From an uncultured Planctomycetaceae bacterium (GTDB lineage Bacteria > Planctomycetota > Planctomycetia > Planctomycetales > Planctomycetaceae), in NCBI GenBank assembly GCA_963976765.1, contig CAXBME010000007.1, positions 248,001 to 290,825 on the forward strand: a DNA stretch of 42,825 nucleotides. Direction: 5' to 3'. Positions 5,828 through 37,401 of this stretch are shown piece by piece. Made by a program: the position numbers and the translations under genes. Position 1 is the stretch's first letter. Each line of letters starts with the position of its first letter. The notes beneath the pieces are model-generated. The model was not told the origin of the DNA and made no database searches. It worked only from the letters and a program-made list of their open reading frames with translations.

Positions 5828-8800
5828 CTACGCGTCGTCCTGTTCAACCTGAGGTTCCGCCGCCGAAGCCGCAACGACCGAGGCGCTGATTTCGCTTCGC
5901 CAGAAGTTTGTTGGCAGCATGCCGATGCCGATAACGGCGGCCTGACTCACCCAGAACGCCCACAGAGTTGCCCAGACGCCCTCGGTAAATCCGTAAGCGT
6001 GTAGACCGACGCTGAGTTCGTTCACGCCGAACCATGACCAGCTGGTGATGATGTTCCCGCCGACGGCCAGCACTGCCAGTCCGCGAGGTCCAACCATTTT
6101 GTCCCAGTGAGCGTGCAGCAGAATTGCGTTCCACAGAACGATCAGCAGGGCACCGTTCTCTTTCGGATCCCAGCCCCAGAAGCGTCCCCAGGAATCGTCA
6201 GCCCACAGGCCTCCCAGAACCGTTCCAACAAAGCTGAAGAAGATGCCGAAGCAGACCGTTCCGTAAATCATGCGGGAAAGATCTTTGCTGGCTTCGGGGG
6301 TGACTCTTTTCGTCACGATACCGGCCAGCACGTAGTACAACCCTAACGCTCCGGCCAGGAAGGTTGTCGAGTATCCCAGCGTGATGCAGACAACGTGGGT
6401 CGCCAGCCAGAACTGAGTATCCAGCACCGCCTGCAGAACTTTGAACGTGTCGCCGTCGCCGGCCAGCAGGTGAGAAATTCCAAGAGTCGTCGCTCCCAGA
6501 GCGGCTCCAATGATATTTCCGATGCCGAGGCGATAGATCGACTCAAAGACCATTCCCAGAACAACGCATCCCCAGCCGATGAACACTGCTGACGAGTAGA
6601 GATTCGTGACCGGCGGTCGTCCCGAGATGTAAATTCGAGCCACGAGCGCGAACGTGTGGACAAAGAACGTCGCCAGGATAACGAGGAACGCCGTTCGATT
6701 CAGCGGCTTCGACCAGCCCAGCAGAGCGATCACTGCGAACACAAACGCGAACAGGTAGCTGAAGGCTGAGTAGTAGAACGGAGCAAAATTGTTGAAGAAG
6801 GTTTCGAAGTTGACCCGATCGACGTCTACTTCTTTCGGCGGATTCGTCGCCAGCCAGCGATGATAGTCTCTGACTTTCTCATTGAAGTCGTCGGCTTTCC
6901 CATTCGCGTGAGCGACCATGATCTCGGTCAGAAACTGCACCGGCTTGCTGGTGTTTGCCCCGAGTAGATTCACGCTGAAGTAAGACTTCGTCCAGCCGCG
7001 AGCGAACGTTTCCCATTCCTCACTGGCCGTGAAGTCACGGTCCCCTTCGCCCTTGATCGGAGGAATCGCGAGCGGCGGTTGGCGCTCATCGATCTGCTGC
7101 AGAACCCGCATCGCAGACTGCACCTGCATCCGCATTTCGTTCTGATCAAGACCGTCAATCTGGATGTCCGGTGGCTGGAAGGTCGTCACCAGTAAGTCGA
7201 ACTGGCCAAGCTTGCTCTGCAGTTCGACGAATTTCCGCTCGTCGGCTGTTCGCTCTTTGCTGTCTTTTTTCCGGGCGTCGCTCGCTGCTTCAAGGAGAAC
7301 AGGAATCTTTTCAAAAAAATCGTCCAGTGAATAAAGGTGCTTCTTGCGACGTTCCAGTTCCAGTTTCTGCAGAAGCTGTGGATGATCGATGCGGAACACT
7401 CGATGCTCGCGAGCCGCCGCCGGATTGGCGATGACATCGAGCAGCCAGCGGACTGCCGGTTGCGTTTCGTCGTTTTTGTCTTTGAAAGTTTCACGGTTGG
7501 AAAGCATTCTCAGGCTGTTTCGAGCCAGCGTGTCGAACGGTTTGACGCGTCCTTCATAGACAAGAGGAATTCGACCGAATTCGTGCAGGTTGGCTGCCGT
7601 CGATTCGTAACTCGGCATGCGTGATTTACTGACCAGCCAGCCGGCAAACAGTAGCATGACAAGCCACGGTGCCAGTTTCACGATGAGTGGTTCCGACAGG
7701 GCCTGGCCGAGTGATGTCGAGGTCGTATCTTCAGCTTTTGTTTTGACCGTGCCCGAATCTCGGCGGCGCAGGAACCGCATCATCACAATCCAGAAGTGGG
7801 CGAGCATGCCCGTCGCGACGATCATGCACGAGACATACGGGATCAGCCAGCCTGTGTTCGACACGACGGCCAGCGTTGTCGATTCTTTGCCGGTTGTCGG
7901 ATCCGGCGGTCCGTAGTTGCTCTGGTAGAAAGTTTCCCCGGCGTAGCGCAGCGGGTTGTTCATCCAGATGTGCTGCTCGAAATCGTCGCCGGTCTTGGGG
8001 TCAGTGATGTGAACGACCGAGCGATAATCACGAGGCGTGTTGGTGCCGACGTAGTCGGTCTTGCTGACATCTTTCAGCTCGACCGTGTACGGCTTGTAAT
8101 AACGTTTGAACCGGAGATAGACGTCCCAGGTTTCGCCGGCGACTTCGATCCGATTGGGAGTCCACTCTGACCTCTTTACCAGCTCGAAAAAGACGCCCGT
8201 CAGAAACGTGCCGAGTTCTTTGGCGGTTCCCTTTTCGGTCACTCGGACGTAGGCGGCGGTCAGGTCGACAGCTCCACCGGAATCCGTACCCGCTCCGGGG
8301 CGAACTTCTGAAACAATCATGGTTTCGCCGGGGCCGGTCGTCGCCGGGTTCCACTCTTCGAAGGCGTAATTGAGCACGTCGTCGATTGTGATCAGCTTCC
8401 TGCGAACCTCGTCAGTCAACGGCGTGCCAAGAGTCGTCTCAAGATCCTTGTAGACCTTTTCGACTTTGGCTGCGTCGGAACTCAGATCAGTCAGCTTGTC
8501 GGCAGTGTTAACCTGAAACGGCGGCACGCCGAGCGTCGACGCGATTTCAATCTGTAGCTGACGACGTTCGACCGGATTTGAGTTCTGCATGAACTGCACG
8601 ATCTCGACGTCAAACGGCATCTCGTCGTCCGTCAGTTTCTTCAGTTCTGGCGGAACTGTCGAATTCCCGGCGGCGACGATCATGGCTTTGGGAATGATGA
8701 TTTCTTCGTTTCTGTCCGCGCCTGCTCGATTGACAAAAACCAGTTCGAATTCACGGATGTCGTCTGCGTAGTTGACCGACTCGCCCTCGCTAATCCTCAT

Positions 8801-9655
8801 TTGAGTCTCAACGTGCGAGGTGTCGACGACGACCTCGTTGAGCATCATCAGGCCGACGCCAGCGTGAAGCAGGACAACTCCCGCCCGCTTGCGAAACAGC
8901 ATGATGCAGCCAGCCAGCATGATGATTGACGCTCCACAGCCTTTAACAAGCTGCCAGAGAATGCGCATTCCCGAATCGTCAATCAGTGCTTCTCGCGGGT
9001 TGAACAGAAGGTAAGCGGCGATAACCAGGCCGGCGAAGACTCCCGCCAGGCTGAACGCCTCGGTGCGGCTTTCGTTCCACTTGCTGATGACTCCCCAGGC
9101 CGTCACGAGTAACAGACTGACCGCCAGAAACTGAAGCAGACTCCATAGAGTGTCCCACCCGATCGTCGCCGACTGAACGGAGTTGCTGCCGTGTCCACTC
9201 TCAATGACGAGCCACGTCGCGACCGCACCGATCGCAGTCACAACCAACCCACCAGTCAGACGCGGCCCTTTGGCCTGAATCTTGAATTTCAGCGAATGAG
9301 CAGCGGCCAGGTTGAGCGCCATCAACGTACCGATCAGGTACCCGCCGGGAAACCACATTCCGACGCCGGTACTGATGCCGCTCAGGTCGAGATACGGAGC
9401 GAACAGTGGATGGAACGTGCGAACGGGTACCCAGGCGAACCAGCAGCGGAAGTAGTCGCGGACGACGTCCCAGATGTCGAGTTCAACCTGAGCCAGCGTT
9501 CCCGCCAGGATCAGAAAGATCGAAAATCCAAACAATGTGACCGTCAGCTTGAGCGACGCCAGCGGTTTGAGAGCTTTTCGAATGTCGCCGCCAAACGAGA
9601 TGTCTTTGGAACTGTCAGCGGAAAACGTCTCGTCAGGGGTAGCCTGGCTGGACAT
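5828..9655 (-). CDS. ccsA: System II cytochrome c biogenesis protein, ResB/CcsB-ResC/CcsA fusion (CcsBA)
   Basis: 1275 aa. ResB-like N-terminus (LASLKLTV...GTLAQ; MNNPLRYAGETFYQS). C-terminal WWD domain GGLWADDSWGRFWGWDPKEN with conserved His contexts LATHV, ILLHA and GLHAYG. Confidence 0.9.
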   Translation of the reverse strand: MSSQATPDETFSADSSKDISFGGDIRKALKPLASLKLTVTLFGFSIFLILAGTLAQVELDIWDVVRDYFRCWFAWVPVRTFHPLFAPYLDLSGISTGVGMWFPGGYLIGTLMALNLAAAHSLKFKIQAKGPRLTGGLVVTAIGAVATWLVIESGHGSNSVQSATIGWDTLWSLLQFLAVSLLLVTAWGVISKWNESRTEAFSLAGVFAGLVIAAYLLFNPREALIDDSGMRILWQLVKGCGASIIMLAGCIMLFRKRAGVVLLHAGVGLMMLNEVVVDTSHVETQMRISEGESVNYADDIREFELVFVNRAGADRNEEIIIPKAMIVAAGNSTVPPELKKLTDDEMPFDVEIVQFMQNSNPVERRQLQIEIASTLGVPPFQVNTADKLTDLSSDAAKVEKVYKDLETTLGTPLTDEVRRKLITIDDVLNYAFEEWNPATTGPGETMIVSEVRPGAGTDSGGAVDLTAAYVRVTEKGTAKELGTFLTGVFFELVKRSEWTPNRIEVAGETWDVYLRFKRYYKPYTVELKDVSKTDYVGTNTPRDYRSVVHITDPKTGDDFEQHIWMNNPLRYAGETFYQSNYGPPDPTTGKESTTLAVVSNTGWLIPYVSCMIVATGMLAHFWIVMMRFLRRRDSGTVKTKAEDTTSTSLGQALSEPLIVKLAPWLVMLLFAGWLVSKSRMPSYESTAANLHEFGRIPLVYEGRVKPFDTLARNSLRMLSNRETFKDKNDETQPAVRWLLDVIANPAAAREHRVFRIDHPQLLQKLELERRKKHLYSLDDFFEKIPVLLEAASDARKKDSKERTADERKFVELQSKLGQFDLLVTTFQPPDIQIDGLDQNEMRMQVQSAMRVLQQIDERQPPLAIPPIKGEGDRDFTASEEWETFARGWTKSYFSVNLLGANTSKPVQFLTEIMVAHANGKADDFNEKVRDYHRWLATNPPKEVDVDRVNFETFFNNFAPFYYSAFSYLFAFVFAVIALLGWSKPLNRTAFLVILATFFVHTFALVARIYISGRPPVTNLYSSAVFIGWGCVVLGMVFESIYRLGIGNIIGAALGATTLGISHLLAGDGDTFKVLQAVLDTQFWLATHVVCITLGYSTTFLAGALGLYYVLAGIVTKRVTPEASKDLSRMIYGTVCFGIFFSFVGTVLGGLWADDSWGRFWGWDPKENGALLIVLWNAILLHAHWDKMVGPRGLAVLAVGGNIITSWSWFGVNELSVGLHAYGFTEGVWATLWAFWVSQAAVIGIGMLPTNFWRSEISASVVAASAAEPQVEQDDA

Positions 9656-9871: not shown

Positions 9872-11086
9872 TTACCGAAACTTGACTGACTTCAGGAAGG
9901 TTCGGACGTTAGCTTTTTCTCGGGAGACAACGTCCGGGTCGCCGACCAGTTTGAAGAACCAGCCGGTGTCGCCTTTGACGACGATCGCTCCGATGATCGA
10001 CTGCTTTTCTCCAGAAATGACGATCAGGCTGCCGGACTCGTCGCCAATCGAAATGTCTTCAACTTCGCTGGCCAGTTCCTCTTTGCTGAGACTTTTCAGA
10101 CCGGCCTGACCTCGCCAGCGGTTCACGTTCTGAGCCACGTCCGAACCGGCAGCGGCGAGCGACGAAACGTAGAACTCGGCAGTTTTCCCATCCTGATCGA
10201 TGTTCCACGAAATCTTTCGAAACGGCTTGAGACTGCCGGAAACCCAGCCGTCCGGAACGTCAAAACTCATTTCTGGAATCGATGTCGGCGAACCTTTGCC
10301 AGCGACATTCGGCGTTGACGCTTCGCCACCGGTTGGTGGATGCCCTGGCGGCAGCGTCGGACCAGCGGCGGACGAATTGCCCGGTCCTGCTGGTCGCCCC
10401 GCTGTCGATGTTCCGCTGCCTGGCGGCGCGGGAACCTTCCCCGACAGATTTACCCAGGTGATGGTCGTTCCGTCTTCCAGGTCGAACTGGTGGAAGTCGT
10501 CGCCAGCTTTCATCTCTTCAAGAGTTTGAGATGCGAGCCCTAACTGGCCTCGCCAGCGATTTACGTTCGGCAGGATGTATTCGTCAGAGGCCGGGGCGTC
10601 GTTTGGCAGCGCGATGACTGAGCACTCGACATCGTCTGCCGGATCCCCAATTACGAACGTTGCGGCCCGCATACCAGAGCCCCCCTGCTCGGTCCACCCG
10701 TCGGGTGTCTTCCAGACGGGCTTGCCATCCGCAATCTTCAACGACTTCAGCAGCGATTCAAATTTTTCGACCTGACCGACAACATCCGCTTCGATACCGG
10801 AAATCTTGAAGAACCACCCCTGGCCGCCAGCCGGGACGATGGCCGCCAGCATGCGGCCATCGACTTTTTCAGACGGCGTTGAAGAGGCGGGTCGATCAGA
10901 CGCTGACGGAACATCCGGAACGTCGCTCGATGCCGTCGACGGTTTCGGGACGAGCCGTCTGGTGATCTCGGGCTCTTCCGTGCAGCCAGCGACGAAAACC
11001 AGCACGATCGCCGCAGCGACGAACGAACTGGCGAAAGCTGGCGACGTGGCCGGTTTTGAGAACGATGTGTCCCGGCGTAAAGCCAT
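9872..11086 (-). CDS. Uncharacterised lipoprotein with two internal repeats, upstream of ccsBA
   Basis: Hydrophobic stretch ending in the lipobox VAGC. Motifs NVNRWRGQxGL, PDGW and GWFFK each occur twice. Pro/Gly linker contains LPPGHPP. Confidence 0.8.
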   Translation of the reverse strand: MALRRDTSFSKPATSPAFASSFVAAAIVLVFVAGCTEEPEITRRLVPKPSTASSDVPDVPSASDRPASSTPSEKVDGRMLAAIVPAGGQGWFFKISGIEADVVGQVEKFESLLKSLKIADGKPVWKTPDGWTEQGGSGMRAATFVIGDPADDVECSVIALPNDAPASDEYILPNVNRWRGQLGLASQTLEEMKAGDDFHQFDLEDGTTITWVNLSGKVPAPPGSGTSTAGRPAGPGNSSAAGPTLPPGHPPTGGEASTPNVAGKGSPTSIPEMSFDVPDGWVSGSLKPFRKISWNIDQDGKTAEFYVSSLAAAGSDVAQNVNRWRGQAGLKSLSKEELASEVEDISIGDESGSLIVISGEKQSIIGAIVVKGDTGWFFKLVGDPDVVSREKANVRTFLKSVKFR

Positions 11087-19190: not shown

Positions 19191-20489
19191 TCAGTCTCTT
19201 TCGGCCTGTGCGACAGCCGTGCCAGGCGAAGGAGCTCGGAGGGCTTTCAGGAAGGCGATGAGATTCTCACGGTCGGAGCTGCTGATGCCTTCGAGATATT
19301 TCTCGCGAGTGTGTTTGGCGTCGCCGCCATGTTTTTCGATGGCGTCTTCGAGCGTCGGTGACGAGCCGTCGTGCAGGTACGGAGCCGAATCGGCGACGCC
19401 CCACAGCGGTGGCGTTTTCCAGTCAGCGAGTCCCGGCACGTTTGGTGGCATCGGCACTTCAGGTTCGCGGACGTAGCCATTGTGGTCCGGGTCGGAAATG
19501 TTGTGCAGACACAGGTCGCTGTAGAGACCTTTCACGCCGCCGAGGTCGGGCGTGTGGCACTCAACGCAGCCTATTTCTGAAAAGACCTGCCGGCCGCGAA
19601 CAACTGCTGAGTGTTCTTTCGAGTTTCGCGGCATCACCAGCTCCGGACGTTCCAGCGTCAGGCAGAATGTGGTGAGGCTGTCGAGCTGGTGGCTGGTCAT
19701 GTCGAATTCGGCGTTCTCGTCTGCTGTAAATTTGCCCGGTTGATCCTGCCGCCGGTACGAGTTGGACAATCCAATTTCGACGGCGCAGGCGGTCGCGACA
19801 AACTCTTCGATCGTGGCGAACTGAGCCTTCCAGCCGAATTTGCCAACGCGACCGTCTGGCAGCACTCGGACCTTGCCCATCGTCGCGTCGAAGTCGCCCT
19901 GAAACTCTTTCCCCAACGCTGTCAGGCTTTGTCCCCAGGCATTCTTCCGGATCGACCAGTCAGAGATGCCGTCGATCAGGCCGGCACCAAACAGAGCTGG
20001 AGTGTTGATCGCTTCAAACTCGACCGGGTTGAAATCTTCCAGCCGGACCTGGCAGTTGCCGATCACGGTTACACCGCCAGGGATGATCGGGAACTGCTGC
20101 TGAACCTGCTCGTCGGTTTCCAGCAGATGCTCGGCTGTCGCGTTGGCATGAACGACTCCGCCATACATGCGGGAATCGTTCCGGTTCGGCAACACCGAGA
20201 ACGCTCTCACATTGTGTTTGTTTTCGCCGGCCCCGCCCGTGCCACCTTGCGAATGACAGGCCACGCAGGAGTTTGCATTGAACACCGGTCCAAGCCCGTC
20301 GCCTTCTCCGGACAGGGGATCGTTCGGCTTCCATTCATGAATAAACAGTTCCCGGCCTTCCGCCGTCAGCTCCTGTTTCGACGGAGCGATCAACCAGGCA
20401 AAGCCCTGAGTGATTCCCCAAAGCATGACCAGGGCACCGGCGACGCAAAACACTTGCCGCCGTCGATCCAATGTTTGCCAGAGTTTCAT
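19191..20489 (-). CDS. Di-heme oxidoreductase family protein (DUF1111/DHOR-like c-type cytochrome)
   Basis: GDGLGPVFNANSCVACH, PALFGAGLI, GKFGWKAQ, GCVECHTP and WKTPPLWGV...PYLHDG. The ATG at 20489 has GGAG upstream. N-terminal transmembrane anchor. Confidence 0.88.
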   Translation of the reverse strand: MKLWQTLDRRRQVFCVAGALVMLWGITQGFAWLIAPSKQELTAEGRELFIHEWKPNDPLSGEGDGLGPVFNANSCVACHSQGGTGGAGENKHNVRAFSVLPNRNDSRMYGGVVHANATAEHLLETDEQVQQQFPIIPGGVTVIGNCQVRLEDFNPVEFEAINTPALFGAGLIDGISDWSIRKNAWGQSLTALGKEFQGDFDATMGKVRVLPDGRVGKFGWKAQFATIEEFVATACAVEIGLSNSYRRQDQPGKFTADENAEFDMTSHQLDSLTTFCLTLERPELVMPRNSKEHSAVVRGRQVFSEIGCVECHTPDLGGVKGLYSDLCLHNISDPDHNGYVREPEVPMPPNVPGLADWKTPPLWGVADSAPYLHDGSSPTLEDAIEKHGGDAKHTREKYLEGISSSDRENLIAFLKALRAPSPGTAVAQAERD

Positions 20490-20679
20490 GGGCAAGCTCC
20501 AAACTCGATCGAAAAGATGCGTCCCTGATTCTGCAGCGGAGTCGTATGATGCCGGGCAGGCAGCGTGAGATCCAGCTCTGAATTGTTTCGCAGGTACGGT
20601 CGAAAGTTATTTCGGATCCTGCCTGAGAAACATCGTCAACGGAATTGATCGTCGACTTTCAACAATTGTCGGCAGAGTT

Positions 20680-29096: not shown

Positions 29097-32000
29097 TTAA
29101 ACCTGAGTGTCGATCAGCATGTCGAGGATGTCGTTCGAGAGTGTAAACGTCTCGTCGATTTCCGAAGCCTGATTGCCAATCAGCAGGTCGTCGCCCTCGT
29201 TGCCCGCGACGGTGTCGGAGTTCGAGCCGCTTCCGGAAACACGATCGTCACCGTCGCCGCCGAGCACGATGTCCGCACCAGCTCCGCCGATCATCGAGTC
29301 GTCGCCATCCTCGCCCAGCAGGGTGTCGTTACCGGCTTCGCCATTGATATTATCGCTGCCTTCGCCACCACTGATCAGGTCGTGACCGGTGCCACCTCTC
29401 AGGGAATCGTTGCCGTCGCCGCCGTTGATCACATCGTTGCCGGCTTCGCCTCGAATCGTGTCGTTGCCGCCGCCGCCGAAGAGCGTATCCAGGCCGCTTT
29501 GTCCTTTGATGCTGTCGGAACCCGACCCGCCTCGGGCCAGGTCGTTACCAGAACCGCCCAGTAGAGTGTCGTTTCCGAGTTCTCCTTCGAGCGTGTCGTG
29601 TCCCGAATTTCCATTCAGGCGGTCGTCATCGTTGCCGCCTCGCAGGAGGTCGTTGCCGATTCCGCCGAAGAGCGAATCCGCTCCGTCACCGCCGAATAAC
29701 TGATCGTCGCCGAGTTCCCCAGACAGAGTGTCGTTCCCCGCTCCGCCTCGAATGGAATCTTCCCCGCGGTCGCCGGAGATCACATCGTCGCCGTCGCCAC
29801 CGTCGAGGATGTCGTCATTGAGCGTTCCCGAAATAGTATCATCGCCGCCTTCTCCGAGTACCTGGATCGGCAGTCTGTTTGAGAGGCTCGACTGACCGTT
29901 AAACGTGTCTGCCCCGTCGCCAAGTCTCACCTGAAGTGCCAGCGGACGAGTATTATTGATGTTGCCCATCGTGACCGTGTCGTTGCCGTCCATCCCGAGG
30001 ATCGTCACGGTATGGACGCTGTTCGAAACGGTGATTGACGCGTTCGGAGTCGACACCCGCAACAGCCCCCCCACCTGAGAAATCACAAACGTGTCGGCAC
30101 CAGCCGTGCCCCGAATCTCGACAGCATCGGCCCCGCCGGTATCGATGGAAGTATTCGCCCCATTCGCAAACGGTTCGAGAATCAGCACATCGCTGCCGTT
30201 TCCGCCGCCAAGCGTGTTGTTGCCCTGACCGCCGTCGACCGAGTCATCGCCAAACCCGCCGTTGATGGTGTCATTTCCTTCGCCACCCTGAAGCGTATCC
30301 ATCCCGCCGCCGCCGATCAGTGTGTCATTGCCAGCTTGCCCGTCAATCAGATCATTGCCGCCAGACCCGATCAACGTGTCATTTCCGTCACCGCCGAGAA
30401 TTGTGTCGTTCTGCCCTATTGTCGGTGGAACGGGTGGCGGTGGTGGCAGCGGTGGCTGAGTTGGCGGAACGGCTCCCAGAGATGCGATATAGGCCGTTGT
30501 ATCGAAAATTGAGTCAGCGAAATCGGCAATGATGAACGTGATTCTGTTTCCCGTCGCTCCGTTACCGATCTGAGCCTGAAAGGTCTGAGTGGGATTCCCA
30601 CCCGTATTCAGAACGCCATTAAGTTCCGTTCCCGGTACTGCCGCGAAGTCCGGGTGAGAAATATTCACAGGCTGGCCGGCAACGAATGCGATATTGTCGG
30701 TTGGAGCTGTTCCATTCAAAAAGATCCCGAAGCCGTCAAAGATCGAATTTACGAAGACGGGAAACTCTTCCGAACCGAAGACTACGTTGAAAAAGAGTGT
30801 GTCAAATCCGGGCAGAAGGTCGAAATCGATATCGAGGCGGGTTACGTCAAAGTGCCCAATCAGCCCACCGGTAATCGGGTCGAGCAACACGTCCTGCGAC
30901 GTGTCCTGCACGGGATCAAAGGATGTCGTTTGCGATGTAGAATTGTTCGGCCCACTGCCGTAGTCAGCAACGTCGCCGGTGCTCAGCACGATTCCGTCGC
31001 CAAAAATCCCGTACGGTGCCACGCCGCCAGCAGAATAGATCCCGGTCGAAACAGCAGCACCCGCTGCCGGAGGCGCAGTCAGAGAAACGTTCGTCACAAC
31101 AATTCCTGGCGCTGTACCGACGAGCGTGTTTACTAAATTCTGGGCGTTTGTTTCGCGAGAAACGATAAGTCCAAAATCGTCATCATCAATAATTCGCCCT
31201 TCGCCAGAACCATCAAGAATTGCAACATTGGTTGCGTTGCTCAGCGTGATGAAAAAGGTCTCTTCGATCTCGTCCAGTGTATCCCCCAATATACTCACTG
31301 GGATCTGCTTACTTGTTTCGCCCGGCTGGAACGTCACCACCCCGACAGGAACGCCCACAAAGTCAACTCCCTCCGTTGCCGTTCCACCGGTGATCGTGCC
31401 ATCAGAACCAATCTGGTATTGAACCGTGACGATGTCTTCGGATGTCGACGAAAGCGAGACTGTGAAGTTGACGATCGTCGTCACGCCGGCACCACCCTCT
31501 GGATCAATTCGGATATCGTCGACTGTGAGAGCCAGGTCATTAGTAGACACCGCATCGTCACCAGCACCGCCATCAATAAAGTCTGCGCCACTTCCGCCAA
31601 AGATTGTGTCGTTACCAATGTGCCCCAGAATCCGGTCGTTGCCGGTCAGTTCCAATTGTGTCTGATCTCCATCGCCGAAGAGCAAATCATGGCCGCTACC
31701 GCCCAGAAGAGTATCGTCATCAGAACCACCAAGGACCGTATCGTTTCCGCTGTTGCCGTTGACGATGTCGTTTCCGTTTTCACCGTTCAGTGAGTCATTG
31801 CCCGTACCACCGAAGACCAGATCGTCATCGTCGCCGCCGAAGAGTGAATCGTTACCGGCGTCTCCATTCAGAGTGTCATTACCAACGCCGCCAAGAATGG
31901 AATCCAGCTCGGATCCGCCTGAGACAGAGTCATCGCCAAGGGCGCCGTCAAGTGTGTCGTTGCCACTGCCACCGTCGATCACGTCGTCGTCGGTGTCTCC

Positions 32001-32705
32001 GGTGATCGTGTCGGCGCCGCTCTGGCCGTTGAGCGTGTCAGCTCCGGAACCGCCGTTGATCGTGTCACCGCTTGAGCCGCCGTTTACAAGGTCATCACCG
32101 ACTTCACCATTGATGATGTCGCCGCCGTCTCCACCGTTGAGCGTGTCGTTGCCGTCTCCACCGTTGAGCAGATCCTGCCCGTTGCCGCCGTTCAGCAGGT
32201 CGGCTCGCGTTCCCCCGAACAGCACGTCAGTACCATCGCCACCGTTCAACGTCGAGGCGATGTCCAGGCTGCCTCGGATAAAGTCGTCGCCGTCACCACC
32301 ATCGACGATGATTTCAAGGTTCGGATTGAAAAATGTCCCGGTGACAGCAGTCAGGTCGACGACGTTGTTTCCGTCGTCACCGGAGATTGTCAGCCGGGCC
32401 AGCGTCGCGGGATCAATCGCAGGAATGCCGAGGACTGGCGAACCATTTTCAAGAACCTCAACAACTGTTGAAGTCGAAATGGCAGCTCGAACAGAGATGT
32501 TGTCGCCTGAATTCGTCGTGATGAATAACTCAGTACCGAGCCCCGACACGATCTGCGTTACCTGCACGGTCAGCATGGTGCGCTGTTCAAGATGCTCAAT
32601 TCGCTGTGGCGAGAATTCGATCCGACGCGGCTGACGAGAGCCTGCTCGTTTGCGGGGAGAACGAATTCGGTTCTGAACGCTGGAGAGCCAGTTGTTAAAT
32701 CGCAC
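29097..32705 (-). CDS. Large extracellular RTX/hemolysin-type Ca-binding repeat protein with planctomycete leader, Calx-beta and choice-of-anchor-L-like domains
   Basis: GTG start with GAGG upstream. Basic leader ending in IEHLEQRTML. Dozens of GGxGxDxL nonapeptides. Calx-beta (FTVSLS...TFQPGETSKQIPVSILGD...ETFFITLSN). GIVLSTG...FGSEEFP...ADFADSIFDT segment resembles choice-of-anchor L. Confidence 0.88.
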   Translation of the reverse strand: MRFNNWLSSVQNRIRSPRKRAGSRQPRRIEFSPQRIEHLEQRTMLTVQVTQIVSGLGTELFITTNSGDNISVRAAISTSTVVEVLENGSPVLGIPAIDPATLARLTISGDDGNNVVDLTAVTGTFFNPNLEIIVDGGDGDDFIRGSLDIASTLNGGDGTDVLFGGTRADLLNGGNGQDLLNGGDGNDTLNGGDGGDIINGEVGDDLVNGGSSGDTINGGSGADTLNGQSGADTITGDTDDDVIDGGSGNDTLDGALGDDSVSGGSELDSILGGVGNDTLNGDAGNDSLFGGDDDDLVFGGTGNDSLNGENGNDIVNGNSGNDTVLGGSDDDTLLGGSGHDLLFGDGDQTQLELTGNDRILGHIGNDTIFGGSGADFIDGGAGDDAVSTNDLALTVDDIRIDPEGGAGVTTIVNFTVSLSSTSEDIVTVQYQIGSDGTITGGTATEGVDFVGVPVGVVTFQPGETSKQIPVSILGDTLDEIEETFFITLSNATNVAILDGSGEGRIIDDDDFGLIVSRETNAQNLVNTLVGTAPGIVVTNVSLTAPPAAGAAVSTGIYSAGGVAPYGIFGDGIVLSTGDVADYGSGPNNSTSQTTSFDPVQDTSQDVLLDPITGGLIGHFDVTRLDIDFDLLPGFDTLFFNVVFGSEEFPVFVNSIFDGFGIFLNGTAPTDNIAFVAGQPVNISHPDFAAVPGTELNGVLNTGGNPTQTFQAQIGNGATGNRITFIIADFADSIFDTTAYIASLGAVPPTQPPLPPPPPVPPTIGQNDTILGGDGNDTLIGSGGNDLIDGQAGNDTLIGGGGMDTLQGGEGNDTINGGFGDDSVDGGQGNNTLGGGNGSDVLILEPFANGANTSIDTGGADAVEIRGTAGADTFVISQVGGLLRVSTPNASITVSNSVHTVTILGMDGNDTVTMGNINNTRPLALQVRLGDGADTFNGQSSLSNRLPIQVLGEGGDDTISGTLNDDILDGGDGDDVISGDRGEDSIRGGAGNDTLSGELGDDQLFGGDGADSLFGGIGNDLLRGGNDDDRLNGNSGHDTLEGELGNDTLLGGSGNDLARGGSGSDSIKGQSGLDTLFGGGGNDTIRGEAGNDVINGGDGNDSLRGGTGHDLISGGEGSDNINGEAGNDTLLGEDGDDSMIGGAGADIVLGGDGDDRVSGSGSNSDTVAGNEGDDLLIGNQASEIDETFTLSNDILDMLIDTQV

Positions 32706-33102
32706 AGGAATACCTCGTCAGACTATTCTTAAAGGACGACATGCGCGGCAGTCGGCAGGTGGCGGATCAAACGTCGATCCGACCAGAGACTTCCGTCACG
32801 CCAGACTTCCTCGGAAATGGTCGACGAGCAAGGAGTGGTTCGACAACTACGCAACGAAGTGCGGAATTGGCACGCCTGGTGATCGAATCGAACGATCCGT
32901 TGTTTTCCCGCATCAGATGATGCCGCCGTTCAACAGATCCGCACGACCTGTCATACCTGAACTGCGTGACTCGGCTGTCTGACGATGACCTGTCCCGCTT
33001 GAGCGATGATTCGGTATTCAAGTCGCCACCCAGCGACGACACTCCGCAGCGGCTTTGACTTCCGAGTCAGATACTTCGTCACACTCCTCAGGACTCAGGC
33101 AG

Positions 33103-33777
33103 ATGACAACGCGGACGGTTGTAATTTTCTCAGGCGGTCTGGATTCGACGACTCTGCTGTACGACCTGAAAGCGTCGGGGCATGAGGTAGTCGCGCTTTC
33201 AATACACTATGGCCAGAGGCACAGTCGCGAACTTCATTCCGCTCAGGAAATCTGCCAGGCGATCGACGTTGAACTGACGATGCTCGACCTCTCCGGGCTG
33301 GCTCAGATCTTTGGCAGCAACAGCCTGTCTGATGCCAGCGTCGCGGTTCCGGAAGGCAGGTATGAAGAAAAATCCATGCAGCAGACGACGGTTCCAAATC
33401 GAAACATGATCCTGCTGTCAATCGCGGTCGGCTGGGCCATTTCAAATGACTGCCAGGCCGTCGCATTCGGAGCTCACTCCGGAGAGTACACCCCTTATCC
33501 CGACTGTCGCCCGGAATTCGCAGCAGCAATGGATAACGTCGCACAAATCTGCGACTGGCAGCCGATTCGCATTCTTGCACCGTTCGTCACGTGGACGAAG
33601 TCGGATATCGTGCGGCGCGGAGCAGAGCTGGCCGTTCCGTTTCAGTTAACATGGTCCTGCTACGTCGGCGGCGAGAAACAATGCGGTCGCTGCGGCACCT
33701 GTCTTGATCGAAAAACCGCCTTCGAAAAAAGCGGCATCGACGACCCGACCGATTACGAAACGGATGGACCTGGCTGA
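33103..33777 (+). CDS. queC: 7-cyano-7-deazaguanine synthase
   Basis: ATG at 33103. SGGLDS, YGQRH, VPNRNMILLS, YPDCRPEF and TWSCY...CGRCGTC. Confidence 0.93.
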   Translation: MTTRTVVIFSGGLDSTTLLYDLKASGHEVVALSIHYGQRHSRELHSAQEICQAIDVELTMLDLSGLAQIFGSNSLSDASVAVPEGRYEEKSMQQTTVPNRNMILLSIAVGWAISNDCQAVAFGAHSGEYTPYPDCRPEFAAAMDNVAQICDWQPIRILAPFVTWTKSDIVRRGAELAVPFQLTWSCYVGGEKQCGRCGTCLDRKTAFEKSGIDDPTDYETDGPG

Positions 33778-33786
33778 GGCGAACGG

Positions 33787-36054
33787 TCAGAGGCGGAAGT
33801 GAAACGTCTGATTGATGTACCGCCACAGCCATTGTCCGGCGGTTCGTTCTTCGACTCGGAATCGAGCCAGACCTCGCATTCCGGATCTGAGCAGTTCGGT
33901 GTCCTGTTCCAGTTCGACCGTTGCCTGATAAACGCTGCTCAACAGACGTTCGCGTCCCTGACTGTCGGTGACCGTCGGCAGGTCTCCACCCAGTTTGTTC
34001 GAAAGCTGCTCAGGTACGTACTCAAGAGGGTTCTTCGAGACTTCCTGAATGTGGCCTTCGTAGGTTCGCGATGGAAGATGGTCGAACTTCAACTGAATGA
34101 GCTGACGTTTCTTTTCGGAATCTTCCAGACGTGCGACCAGCTCGGCCTGGCTGAGTTCGTTAATGTCGCCCTGGTCGATCAACACAACCGCCTGAAAGAG
34201 GCTCGACGGGGCAACACTCAGCAGATGAGTCCGTTCGTCGATTGTGGCGCCAATATTCTTCGGATGAAGCGGCGTTCCGTTCCAGGTGGAAAGCTGCTTT
34301 CGCGCGGTTTCGATGGGGGGTTCAGGGACCCGTGGCGGTTCGACAATCGTTCCGGCGATTTCCGCCTTTATCGTCAGGGCGGCAAGCTGCTGCTGAACAT
34401 CTTTAAGCTGGTCAGTCAGGGCGGCGATCTGGTTGTCGGCAAGGCTCATGCGCCCTTCGTTGCCAACGATTCGCTGTGTGTCCCTTTCGAGTTTCTGGAT
34501 CTCGATCTTGTTGAGCAGATCACGTTTCTGGTCTTCCAGATCCGGGTTTCGCATTTGAACCACGACCTGATCGCCGCCGACCGAATCTCCAGCCTTGACC
34601 ATCACGTCGGTCAACTCGCCAGGCGTTTGCGTGTAGATGTGTTTAACGTTGAGCGGCTCGATGATGTAGGTTGCTTCAATGTGCAGAGGCATCGGAATGG
34701 AGAGCACCGCATAGCTAACGCAAAACAGAATCGTGAGAGTGAATGCGATTTTCGGTTTGCTCATCGGTTCAATCCTCGGTGCCGTGATCATCTTGTAGAG
34801 GTTGCTGATCATGCTGTACATGATCGTCGAAATCGACACGACGGCCAGTGTCGCCCCGATACTCTGTAATCCATAGGGTTTCAGAACGGTGTAGAGAAAC
34901 ACCGTAATCGCGATCACGATAAACCAGCGGTAGATACCTGCCGCGATGGCGAAGGTAACAAACCACGCCTTGCCGGTTTCTGGCATAAACGGATCGGGTT
35001 TGGATTCGATCCCCAGGCAGTACCAGGCGAAAGACTCCCGCAGCAGCTTGTCGGCTTTCGGGCGGAGATTCGGAATCTCCAGAAAGTCAGACATCATGTA
35101 GTAACCATCAAAACGCATCAGCGGATTGGCGTTGAAGATGACTGTCGTGATCGTCGTAACGAAGAAAATATTCAACGCGAGATTGTGCAGCAGTCCCTGG
35201 TCGGTGTACCGCCAGATGAAGATCGCGAGTGCGGACAGGAAGACTTCAATATACATCCCCGCCGCACCGATCATGATGCGCGGCCACTTGCTGCGAAGCA
35301 TCCATGAGTCGGAAACATCGCAATACAGGCACGGGCTGAACACCAGCAGCATGACACCCATTTCGTGACATTCGCCGCCGAAATGTTTGCAACTTAAACC
35401 GTGACCGAATTCGTGGATAATCTTCGAGATGCTCAGCGTGATCCACAGATAAAGCAGGTTCGGCCAACCGAAGAACTGCTGAAACTTCGGCAGCTCGGAG
35501 CGAAAAGTTTCGAACTGAACAGCCAGCAGAGCCCACGACGACAGCACGACGGCGAACCAGACGAAGACTCCGAACCTGGAAAAGAACAGGAGTCGACAAA
35601 CCGGATAGATTGCCGTGAGTGTGGTTTCCGGATCCCAACCGGGCAGTCTGAGGTACAGCAGACTTTTCAGGGTGTTGAAGAACTTTTTCTTTTTCTCGTC
35701 GCGCTGCTTCTTGATCAGCGACGCTCCCTGGCCCGATCGTTGACTGCTAACCAGACCTTTTTCGTGCAGGTCGGTAATCAGGTGCTGGATGTCGGAAAGC
35801 TGCAGCCGAACAGTCGGCATGATTTTCAGCATTTCCTCGCGAAGCTGTTCCAGGCTGCGTTCGCCGTTCAGCAGGTTCAGGACGTGGTACTGTTCCTGTT
35901 GAAGTCGGAAGTACTTCAGGCCAGCAGGATCTTTGACAACCCAGTAACCGACTCCCAGGTAATCAATCCGTTTGATCACCAGATCGGCTCGAACCGCCAG
36001 CGGAATTGGTCGCTGCGTCGAGGGAATCATTTCGGAGTTTTGCTGGGTAATCAT
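33787..36054 (-). CDS. PqqD/RRE-like - M50 (site-2) metallopeptidase - HlyD-type membrane fusion protein
   Basis: HEFGH and FNANPLMRFDGYY are M50 zinc motifs. N-terminal YWVVKDP...YFRL...LNGERSL...LHEKGLV resembles a PqqD fold. C-terminal lipoyl half-motifs, coiled coil and beta-barrel (TPGELTDVMVKAGDSV; IKAEIAGTIV; LRSGMRG). Confidence 0.85.
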   Translation of the reverse strand: MITQQNSEMIPSTQRPIPLAVRADLVIKRIDYLGVGYWVVKDPAGLKYFRLQQEQYHVLNLLNGERSLEQLREEMLKIMPTVRLQLSDIQHLITDLHEKGLVSSQRSGQGASLIKKQRDEKKKKFFNTLKSLLYLRLPGWDPETTLTAIYPVCRLLFFSRFGVFVWFAVVLSSWALLAVQFETFRSELPKFQQFFGWPNLLYLWITLSISKIIHEFGHGLSCKHFGGECHEMGVMLLVFSPCLYCDVSDSWMLRSKWPRIMIGAAGMYIEVFLSALAIFIWRYTDQGLLHNLALNIFFVTTITTVIFNANPLMRFDGYYMMSDFLEIPNLRPKADKLLRESFAWYCLGIESKPDPFMPETGKAWFVTFAIAAGIYRWFIVIAITVFLYTVLKPYGLQSIGATLAVVSISTIMYSMISNLYKMITAPRIEPMSKPKIAFTLTILFCVSYAVLSIPMPLHIEATYIIEPLNVKHIYTQTPGELTDVMVKAGDSVGGDQVVVQMRNPDLEDQKRDLLNKIEIQKLERDTQRIVGNEGRMSLADNQIAALTDQLKDVQQQLAALTIKAEIAGTIVEPPRVPEPPIETARKQLSTWNGTPLHPKNIGATIDERTHLLSVAPSSLFQAVVLIDQGDINELSQAELVARLEDSEKKRQLIQLKFDHLPSRTYEGHIQEVSKNPLEYVPEQLSNKLGGDLPTVTDSQGRERLLSSVYQATVELEQDTELLRSGMRGLARFRVEERTAGQWLWRYINQTFHFRL

Positions 36055-36121
36055 CGCATCACCGGTGCGTCAATCGGGGTGAGTCTGATTCATGCCGTTC
36101 AGGAATCAAAAGACGTGAAGG

Positions 36122-37036
36122 TTATCGTCGAAGACCGATTGCCGCATTGGCGGGAGCCGGAGTGATGGCCATTTTGGCGTTCAGACCCGGGCGAAGAATC
36201 CGATTGGGATTCGGAATTTCTGCGATCACTTTCACACTGCCAATAATTGGTGAGAAGGTCGTGTCGACCATTTTCACTTTCCCAACGAGAATCTCGTCCT
36301 TGAAAGGGATATTCAGTTCGCCGGCATCCAGTTGAACCCGGACGGTATCGCCTGTCTTCACATGGAACGCGTCGGGAATGCTGATATATCCTTCGATTTT
36401 GACTCGATCGATGCTCAGAACTTCCAGAATTGGAGTTCCCTGTTGAACGGCTTCGCCCTTTCGCTGATAGACCTTTGAAACAATGCCGCTGAAAGGGGCG
36501 GTCACTTTGTAGGTCTTCAGCGCTTCCTCGTTTTCGGTAACGGTCAGCTGTGCAATTCTTTGCTCAAACTGAGCCTGCTCAATCTGAAGTGTCGCTTTTT
36601 CAACAGCCAGTTTCTGTTTTGCGAGTTCAGCTTCAGGAACGGTGCCGGGAACTTTGTTGTTCGCCGCGTTCGACATGGCGAGGTCAGCATCTGCGAACTC
36701 GGATGACTTTACGGCATAGCGGACGTGAACATCGTTCGTGGACTTCTCAAGTTCTTTTTCGTACGTCGCTTTCGCCACCCCGTCCTTCAAACCGGCAACG
36801 ATCTGGCCGGCCTGGACGACTGTGCCTTCTTCGGGCGTGTCGTTTTCGAGAATACCTGGCCGTTCGGCAGCCAGAGTGACGACGTCGATCAACTGAATCG
36901 TACAGTCGTACGCGGTAACCACGTCAGGTTTTCCCTGTTGAGCTTCGACGTGCTGACTACTGATTGCCCAAATGGCGAGCAAGGTGACAACCACTGCGCC
37001 AGTCGAACCAAAAGCCCAGGCTGCAAGACGCTTCAT
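36122..37036 (-). CDS. HlyD/RND-type periplasmic adaptor (membrane fusion protein)
   Basis: ATG at 37036 with GGAG upstream. N-terminal anchor, LAAERPGIL...EGTVVQAGQ, helical hairpin, VTAPFSGIV...GEAVQQG and LRPGLNAKM. Confidence 0.88.
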   Translation of the reverse strand: MKRLAAWAFGSTGAVVVTLLAIWAISSQHVEAQQGKPDVVTAYDCTIQLIDVVTLAAERPGILENDTPEEGTVVQAGQIVAGLKDGVAKATYEKELEKSTNDVHVRYAVKSSEFADADLAMSNAANNKVPGTVPEAELAKQKLAVEKATLQIEQAQFEQRIAQLTVTENEEALKTYKVTAPFSGIVSKVYQRKGEAVQQGTPILEVLSIDRVKIEGYISIPDAFHVKTGDTVRVQLDAGELNIPFKDEILVGKVKMVDTTFSPIIGSVKVIAEIPNPNRILRPGLNAKMAITPAPANAAIGLRR

Positions 37037-37401
37037 GACGAGACTCCCAAAAACTTTCAAAGCCTATTGTGCTGAATCCAGCTCTGCCGATCCGAAACAA
37101 CGAGTTTATTGCACCGTCCGACTGTATCGAACTTCGGAACTTCTTTGATCGCCGATGATCTGAAGCAGAGGGCTGACGTAGACAGTTTGTTCAATCCGGC
37201 AGCGAACGAGTTCGCGACATTTTCGGATGCACCGAGGATCGTACCTGGACCCGCCTGACACAACCAGATCGATTCTGACGGACATATCTGGCTGTGAAAG
37301 TGCAGAAGATACGCAGAACGGTAGGATTCATCGCACGCTGAGAGAGAGGCCTTCAGGCAAAGGCCGTACCCCTTCTTTCCTTTGTTTTTGAGGACACCCC
37401 G

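Follow-up and report, generated by a model that had tools for sequence, protein, structure and literature searches.

An acyl-carrier-protein-derived domain inserted in the optional periplasmic barrel of a Planctomycetaceae cytochrome c synthase

Fused CcsBA synthases and the Planctomycetaceae protein

The closest described systems are the fused CcsBA proteins of H. hepaticus (7S9Y/7S9Z) and B. thetaiotaomicron (25VK; the available sections of PMC13645880), which have in common with the Planctomycetaceae protein the ResB + CcsA fusion, four heme histidines, the WWD motif, the beta-cap loop (as defined in the available text of PMC10663686) and two periplasmic domains. The extra part of CcsB is a beta-barrel that is found in some CcsB proteins only, and its role is stated as undetermined in section 11 of PMC13645880, the section that describes it. 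This optional barrel is common to the H. hepaticus and Planctomycetaceae proteins. However, the Planctomycetaceae CcsBA differs from both described synthases in its length (1275 aa), its extra membrane helices, an acyl carrier protein (ACP)-fold domain within its barrel and a lipoprotein gene that is conserved upstream of it. A preliminary description of the locus, which had pointed out the ACP-like segment, knew of no report of such an architecture; likewise, no description of an ACP-like domain in CcsBA was found in the literature covered, outside which most subscription papers and supplements lie, and the text consulted of PMC4222556, on anammox System II, leaves an ACP insert untouched. 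What is confirmed as real, and was not found in print, is an ACP-derived domain that lacks carrier features, is restricted to one lineage and sits in the optional CcsBA barrel.

The window, i.e., the whole 42,825-nucleotide stretch of DNA that was analysed, contains the host gene and its main elements at the following positions:

5828..9655, minus strand: ccsBA, fused System II cytochrome c synthase of 1275 aa (Pfam PF05140 and PF01578)
6170..6205, minus strand: WWD heme-handling motif, aa 1151-1162, intact (alignment to 7S9Y)
7850..8818, minus strand: periplasmic domain 1, aa 280-602, from the His264 helix to the next membrane helix (predicted model and topology)
8051..8068, minus strand: start of the beta-cap loop, V530-Y535, equivalent to H. 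hepaticus F240-Y245 and outside the insert-bearing barrel (alignment)
8093..8770 (approximate), minus strand: optional distal beta-barrel carrying the insert, part of periplasmic domain 1, aa ~296-521 (alignment)
8864..8866, minus strand: His264, equivalent to H. hepaticus His83 (alignment)

ResB (PF05140) and Cytochrom_C_asm (PF01578) are matched in one chain of the 1275-aa ORF, and the CcsBA profile matches 7S9Y at E 4e-59. The heme histidines H264, H1087, H1181 and H1219 are intact and align to H. hepaticus H83, H761, H858 and H897; together with the WWD motif, they are invariant across 20 close homologues. We take His264, like H. hepaticus His83, to be a heme ligand in the membrane. Y535 aligns with H. 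hepaticus Y245, and the beta cap is thus present in periplasmic domain 1. As far as sequence can tell, the protein would attach heme in the manner of other CcsBA proteins.

It should be noted that ccsBA is a single-copy gene and that no other gene of its type was found in the genome. In a second gene matching PF01578, no WWD-like motif is seen, and a search of the genome for CcmE found nothing. A synthase dedicated to a particular substrate was rejected on these three grounds; being the sole CcsBA of its type in the genome, the insert-bearing protein is unlikely to have such a role. A DHOR-family (di-heme oxidoreductase) cytochrome c encoded at window 19191-20495 (minus strand) is a likely client. 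Elsewhere in the window, at 29097-37060 (minus strand), lies a 1202-aa RTX-repeat/Calx-beta protein, upstream of which a peptidase-M50/HlyD protein and then an HlyD protein are encoded; queC is located on the opposite strand, between genes of this group.

The region of aa 280-602 contains no hydrophobic segment, and the helix that follows it spans aa 608-626. It is predicted to be periplasmic because basic residues (Lys/Arg) lie beyond both flanking helices, on their far side, and because it matches H. hepaticus residues 99-305 (model against 7S9Z: Z 13.8, rmsd 6.0 A over 200 residues). In the profile alignment, B. thetaiotaomicron CcsBA jumps from residue 112 to residue 128 where H. hepaticus has ~100 extra residues and the Planctomycetaceae protein ~226. 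The barrel is therefore the part skipped by the B. thetaiotaomicron protein, and the insert is nested in this optional barrel, outside the beta-cap loop.

The insert and its relation to acyl carrier proteins

Two features define the inserted domain:

8351..8578, minus strand: inserted loop, aa 360-435, with the ACP-fold helices at aa 364-435 (insertion, ACP homology and predicted fold)
8471..8473, minus strand: Ala395, at the ACP phosphopantetheine Ser position (HMMER alignment)

The preliminary description had proposed that an ACP fold was captured by the periplasmic, ResB-type region of CcsBA. Homology, predicted fold, topology and the genome survey agree with this proposal, for one lineage only, and aa 360-435 is confirmed as an ACP-derived domain inserted in CcsBA. 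The segment on which the proposal was based (window 8354-8569, minus strand) translates exactly as quoted, as residues 363-434 of ORF 5828-9655; however, although the quoted residues lie inside the insert, the true inserted loop extends from 360 to 435. Loop parsing confirms that, as suggested, it is an extra stretch inserted after the NS motif and before NPAT, and not an ordinary part of ResB. Alignments to other planctomycetes break near residue 360 and resume near 435, and among 173 rows (proteins and locus ORFs, duplicates included), the loop between the flanking motifs is a 73-77-aa insert in 32, a 9-18-aa loop in 137 and a longer, different segment in four; the CcsBA homologues were taken from the best 120 of 744. 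An artefact was rejected, as the insert is in frame in 22 distinct variants and has a GC content of 54%, compared with 57% for the rest of the gene.

The likeness to ACPs is beyond chance. A phmmer search of the PDB with the single sequence returned 38 matches at E<=10, 35 of which are named acyl carrier protein (best E 9e-4), whereas a profile of 19 inserts reached E 2e-7, with ACPs or ACP-type chains making up 59 of the 60 matches listed. NCBIfam acyl carrier protein models were matched by 16 of the 19 inserts (best 1.4e-6). PP-binding (PF00550), the family named for a check, is matched by six of the 19 inserts at E<=1 (best 1.3e-4) but not by the window's own copy, which also falls far below the TIGR00517 cut-off (16.6 vs. 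70.45 bits). In the ESM Atlas, the segment pointed to a PP-binding cluster at 0.90, which is no more than a lead, and the JGI automatic name of a relative (P0022) already includes 'acyl carrier protein'.

Structure prediction gave the same picture. The model of periplasmic domain 1 (aa 280-602) was built from 92 rows, of which 22 have the insert and none is an ACP sequence. In this predicted model (pLDDT 93, pTM 0.88), the insert consists of four helices that follow one another as in an ACP and are flanked by host beta-strands; a single-sequence fold of aa 326-462 (pLDDT 43) was set aside. Foldseek with the model placed 7S9Y and 7S9Z at the top, followed mostly by ACPs (rmsd 1.5-2.4 A, E 4e-3 and weaker, TM to ACP targets ~0.8). 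In a wide structural search, the insert was aligned with AcpP (4IHF chain G) at Z 11.5 and rmsd 2.1 A over 75 residues; Z values below ~13 can be common for helical bundles, and the sequence evidence agrees independently. The similarity to the ACP helical bundle that the preliminary description had anticipated is therefore found in the predicted fold.

The insert resembles AcpP (TIGR00517, PF00550; 4IHF_G, 8JFI_G, 2EHS) in sequence homology and in its predicted four-helix fold. However, it lies below all curated cut-offs, has mostly lost the Ser, has a variable helix II and is less acidic; moreover, it is embedded and periplasmic, and its pattern of constraint is inverted. Other structural matches (Z 7.4-9.5) are chains in which the ACP fold likewise serves as a building block, i.e., mitoribosomal chains (3J6B_8, 4V1A_m) and ACP subunits of complex I, EmbAB and MmpS5L5; these chains are subunits of their own, located in the cytoplasm or matrix, whereas the insert is an internal domain outside the membrane. 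Most ACP-fold structural subunits keep the cofactor. The ribosomal chains 3J6B_8 and 4V1A_m are presumably mL50.

When the genome is searched with the insert profile, its own AcpP comes out best after the insert itself (E 2e-4), with 12-19 identical residues over 52-64 aligned; the AcpP gene adjoins a fabF-like gene (neighbour named by eye). Among proteins of 40-135 aa, a search for a free-standing sister gave 10 matches at E 0.4-9, all with PF00550, and no sister family. Because no closer free-standing sister protein was found, a copy of acpP is the likely origin of the insert. A 10-row insert profile run against 1.84 billion representatives gave five matches, namely the CcsBA carrier P0014, three apparent repeat artefacts and P0126. 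The last was rejected as a donor: its summed score is no higher than two ordinary ACP matches would add up to, and its relatives (in four of 301 phylum genomes) match via the N-terminal part only.

Distribution of the insert and the permissive loop

Whether the segment marks particular clades had been raised in the preliminary description; in the family survey, the insert was found in two genera, and most homologues have the short loop of 9-18 aa. The insert profile matched eight of 398 family genomes (two of 92 genera), whereas the downstream flank was matched in 356. In the window's genus, the region was found in six genomes, each of which carries the insert; two further genomes of that genus match neither insert nor flank, one being 59% complete and the other having the gene cut by a contig end. 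In genus g48 (G074-G085), none of the 12 genomes, several of them >90% complete, matches the periplasmic-domain-1 query; this genus may use another maturation system. In L038 (G018), ccsBA is split over several reading frames, by frameshifts or assembly errors.

P0026 has, instead of the insert, an ancestral-looking 10-residue loop. In trees from which the loop was left out (59 and 20 selected rows), P0026 and the main carrier group are nevertheless fully supported sisters; a clade of carriers only was rejected (p-AU 3e-5, 20 selected rows). The trees require two changes of insert state, and support is weak for the node that unites the two groups of carriers (85 in the 59-row tree, open in the 20-row tree). 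Because the inserts share signature residues across carriers, one capture, followed by loss or lateral transfer, is likely. A sliding comparison of P0026, used as a mosaic test, showed even identity to carriers along the protein and no long foreign tract.

The same loop has accepted other domains, among them copies of a domain of the lipoprotein encoded upstream of ccsBA:

9872..11086, minus strand: predicted lipoprotein of 404 aa with two ~135-aa PsbP/DcrB-like domains (ESM Atlas look-alikes)
L046:1929-5699, minus strand: RRM with a nested lipoprotein-type domain, aa 260-471

In L046, the loop contains an RRM (PF00076, E 7e-6) in which a circularly permuted copy of the domain of the upstream lipoprotein is nested, and in P0085, an unpermuted lipoprotein-type domain occupies the same loop (aa 359-495). 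A third lineage carries the lipoprotein domain fused into CcsBA at a different place, periplasmic domain 2 (L039:3516-7772, plus strand, aa 718-860). It appears that one barrel loop has independently taken up whole domains, i.e., an ACP, an RRM and the domain of the upstream lipoprotein. The RRM of L046 is the second cytoplasmic fold captured at the insert site. A scan for added domains in 36 selected long proteins also revealed PDZ and EF-hand domains in other planctomycete CcsBA proteins (P0032 aa 731-821, P0042 aa 728-807, P0045 aa 760-827). P0038-P0040 have ~170 extra residues before the loop, and in L074:2060-3982 and L083:1137-2771 (both plus strand), a long segment at the insert site resembles, by eye, an extra copy of the barrel module. 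L074 is labelled Klebsiella yet has a PVC-type gene pair; it may be misbinned.

In all 55 loci that include DNA upstream of ccsBA, the gene immediately before it encodes the lipoprotein (57 loci examined, some duplicated; homologues in L031-L087). The homologues have one to three PsbP/DcrB-like domains, the first of which is circularly permuted in most Planctomycetia loci, and two shorter paralogues are encoded elsewhere in the genome (C28, C3). No solved structure was matched in sequence by the lipoprotein profile. A complex prediction for CcsBA aa 281-950 with the lipoprotein, run without controls, scored 0.00 and speaks neither for nor against an interaction. The lipoprotein is a candidate System II accessory of CcsBA.

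Constraint within the insert and possible roles

The part of the insert under the strongest constraint is the following:

8501..8578, minus strand: aa 360-385, comprising the junction strand, helix I and loop 1 with VPPFQ (dN/dS)

In six genomes of the same genus, dN/dS is 0.055 for aa 360-385, 0.21 for aa 386-435 and 0.039 for AcpP, whereas across 36 pairs of nine sequences, the whole insert has the highest value of five regions (0.18 vs. 0.11, 0.08, 0.06 and 0.05); the ratios were obtained by simple counting with dS near 1, close to saturation, and are rough, and the kin compared are not independent. The constraint on helix I/loop 1 is about equal to that on the catalytic part (0.055 vs. 0.047). 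Eleven of the 26 positions of aa 360-385 are invariant in the eight carriers, with the first four residues of this stretch belonging to the junction strand. Where the aligned ACPs have small or acidic residues, the insert has conserved hydrophobic ones at I369, F380 and F432, and D394, K397 and R418 are invariant in all 22 variants, unlike in AcpP. Helix II has gone the opposite way: in the eight carrier genomes, all of which have an intact AcpP, three of 17 helix II positions are invariant in the insert compared with 16 of 17 in AcpP. In these genomes, constraint has moved from the recognition helix II of ACP to helix I/loop 1 on the opposite face.

The reading that we consider probable is that a domesticated ACP copy no longer carries anything and sits packed against the barrel, a passive cap that the enzyme can do without. 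A copy of acpP would have inserted in a surface loop of the optional periplasmic barrel. This loop probably points away from the membrane active site, and whole domains would be tolerated there for that reason. The two ends of an ACP lie close together, which makes this fold suited to a loop. I369, F380 and F432 likely form a new hydrophobic face seated on the host barrel, a packing with which the pTM of 0.88 and the residue pattern agree. Because misfolding would damage the cell's only CcsBA of its type, selection would keep the domain folded and seated, while heme would be exported and attached just as by other CcsBA proteins. In favour of a cap are the presence of the insert in only eight genomes of the 356 with periplasmic domain 1 (398 searched), its absence from the nested P0026, the absence of the host barrel itself from B. 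thetaiotaomicron, and the permissiveness of the site, as evident from the RRM in L046 and the lipoprotein-domain copies in L046 and P0085. Conversely, helix I/loop 1 is about as constrained as the catalytic part, the invariant D394, K397 and R418 could be a functional surface, and the insert is present in all six same-genus genomes with the region found. Co-adaptation of the host is also slight: a scan of the host flanks for co-variation with the insert was weak, with nine positions passing the filter and P0026 differing at three of them (I326, V353, F489).

Continued ACP-like function, in which the insert would be phosphopantetheinylated or hold a lipid chain, e.g., of lipid-anchored apocytochromes, is most improbable, even though the fold is kept in the predicted model. 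The replacement of the phosphopantetheine Ser by Ala noted earlier holds for the window's copy but not universally, since Ser is retained, correctly placed, in three of the 22 distinct inserts, and the preceding Asp is invariant. However, Ser is missing in the other 19, the next residue (Leu in AcpP) is Leu in none, net charges range from -2 to -12 compared with -15 for the genome's AcpP, and Phe or Tyr occupies in all 22 the position of a helix II Val of AcpP that we take to line the acyl pocket. Moreover, PPTases and CoA are cytoplasmic, whereas the insert is predicted to be periplasmic. To go by these substitutions, the insert is probably not a working acyl carrier, and lipid binding is unlikely; the proposed hydrophobic-ligand module agrees poorly with a helix II that is now polar and variable, and nothing links the insert to the lipid-anchored or large apocytochromes suggested as clients; the genome yielded no other CcsBA of this type. 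The neutral insertion that the preliminary description also allowed for, here understood as a flexibly tethered passenger kept because exact excision is rare, would explain the highest dN/dS of the protein, the narrow range and the absence from P0026, but it fits poorly with a contrast inside the insert, where one face is kept at 0.055 and has gained conserved hydrophobic residues and the remaining helices drift at 0.21. The pTM of the whole domain would also fit a fixed orientation. We consider such a passenger improbable.

A docking module is a tentative alternative to the passive cap. Its binding surface would be the helix I/loop 1 face (VPPFQ) together with D394, K397 and R418, and its partner would be periplasmic, for example the upstream lipoprotein, a thiol reductase or an unfolded apocytochrome near the chamber. 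The docking half of the earlier idea of a docking or hydrophobic-ligand module is thus conceivable on this face, whereas the ligand half is unsupported, helix II being degraded. Docking would account for the low dN/dS of the helix I/loop 1 face, for the invariant charged residues that AcpP does not have and for an insert length held at 73-77 aa over two genera; furthermore, the uptake of the lipoprotein's domain by the same loop in two other lineages suggests that this partner works nearby. However, the lipoprotein gene is upstream with or without the insert, and the carriers therefore had no absent partner to recruit. In addition, no insert match was found in 348 of the 356 family genomes with periplasmic domain 1, P0026 does without it, and an unrelated RRM fills the same loop elsewhere. 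A broader version, which we regard as doubtful, holds that a cytoplasmic ACP became a periplasmic docking module via the face opposite its old recognition helix, marking the barrel loop as a place where accessory factors work, among them the PsbP-like lipoprotein as a further System II component in Planctomycetota and Verrucomicrobiota.

Within the context of domain evolution, the insert is a clean case of domestication, in which constraint has flipped from the ACP recognition helix to the opposite face within the same genomes. If the cap is passive, its value is evolutionary and modest; if the insert does dock a partner, it would be a part added to cytochrome c maturation. Having taken up whole domains independently, the loop is a natural tagging site and a place at which to probe the role of the barrel. 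P0126, a protein of 324 aa in which a leader-like N-terminus and a twin-arginine-like stretch (both by eye) precede two ACP-like domains that lack the Ser, is possibly an independent case of exported degenerate ACP folds.
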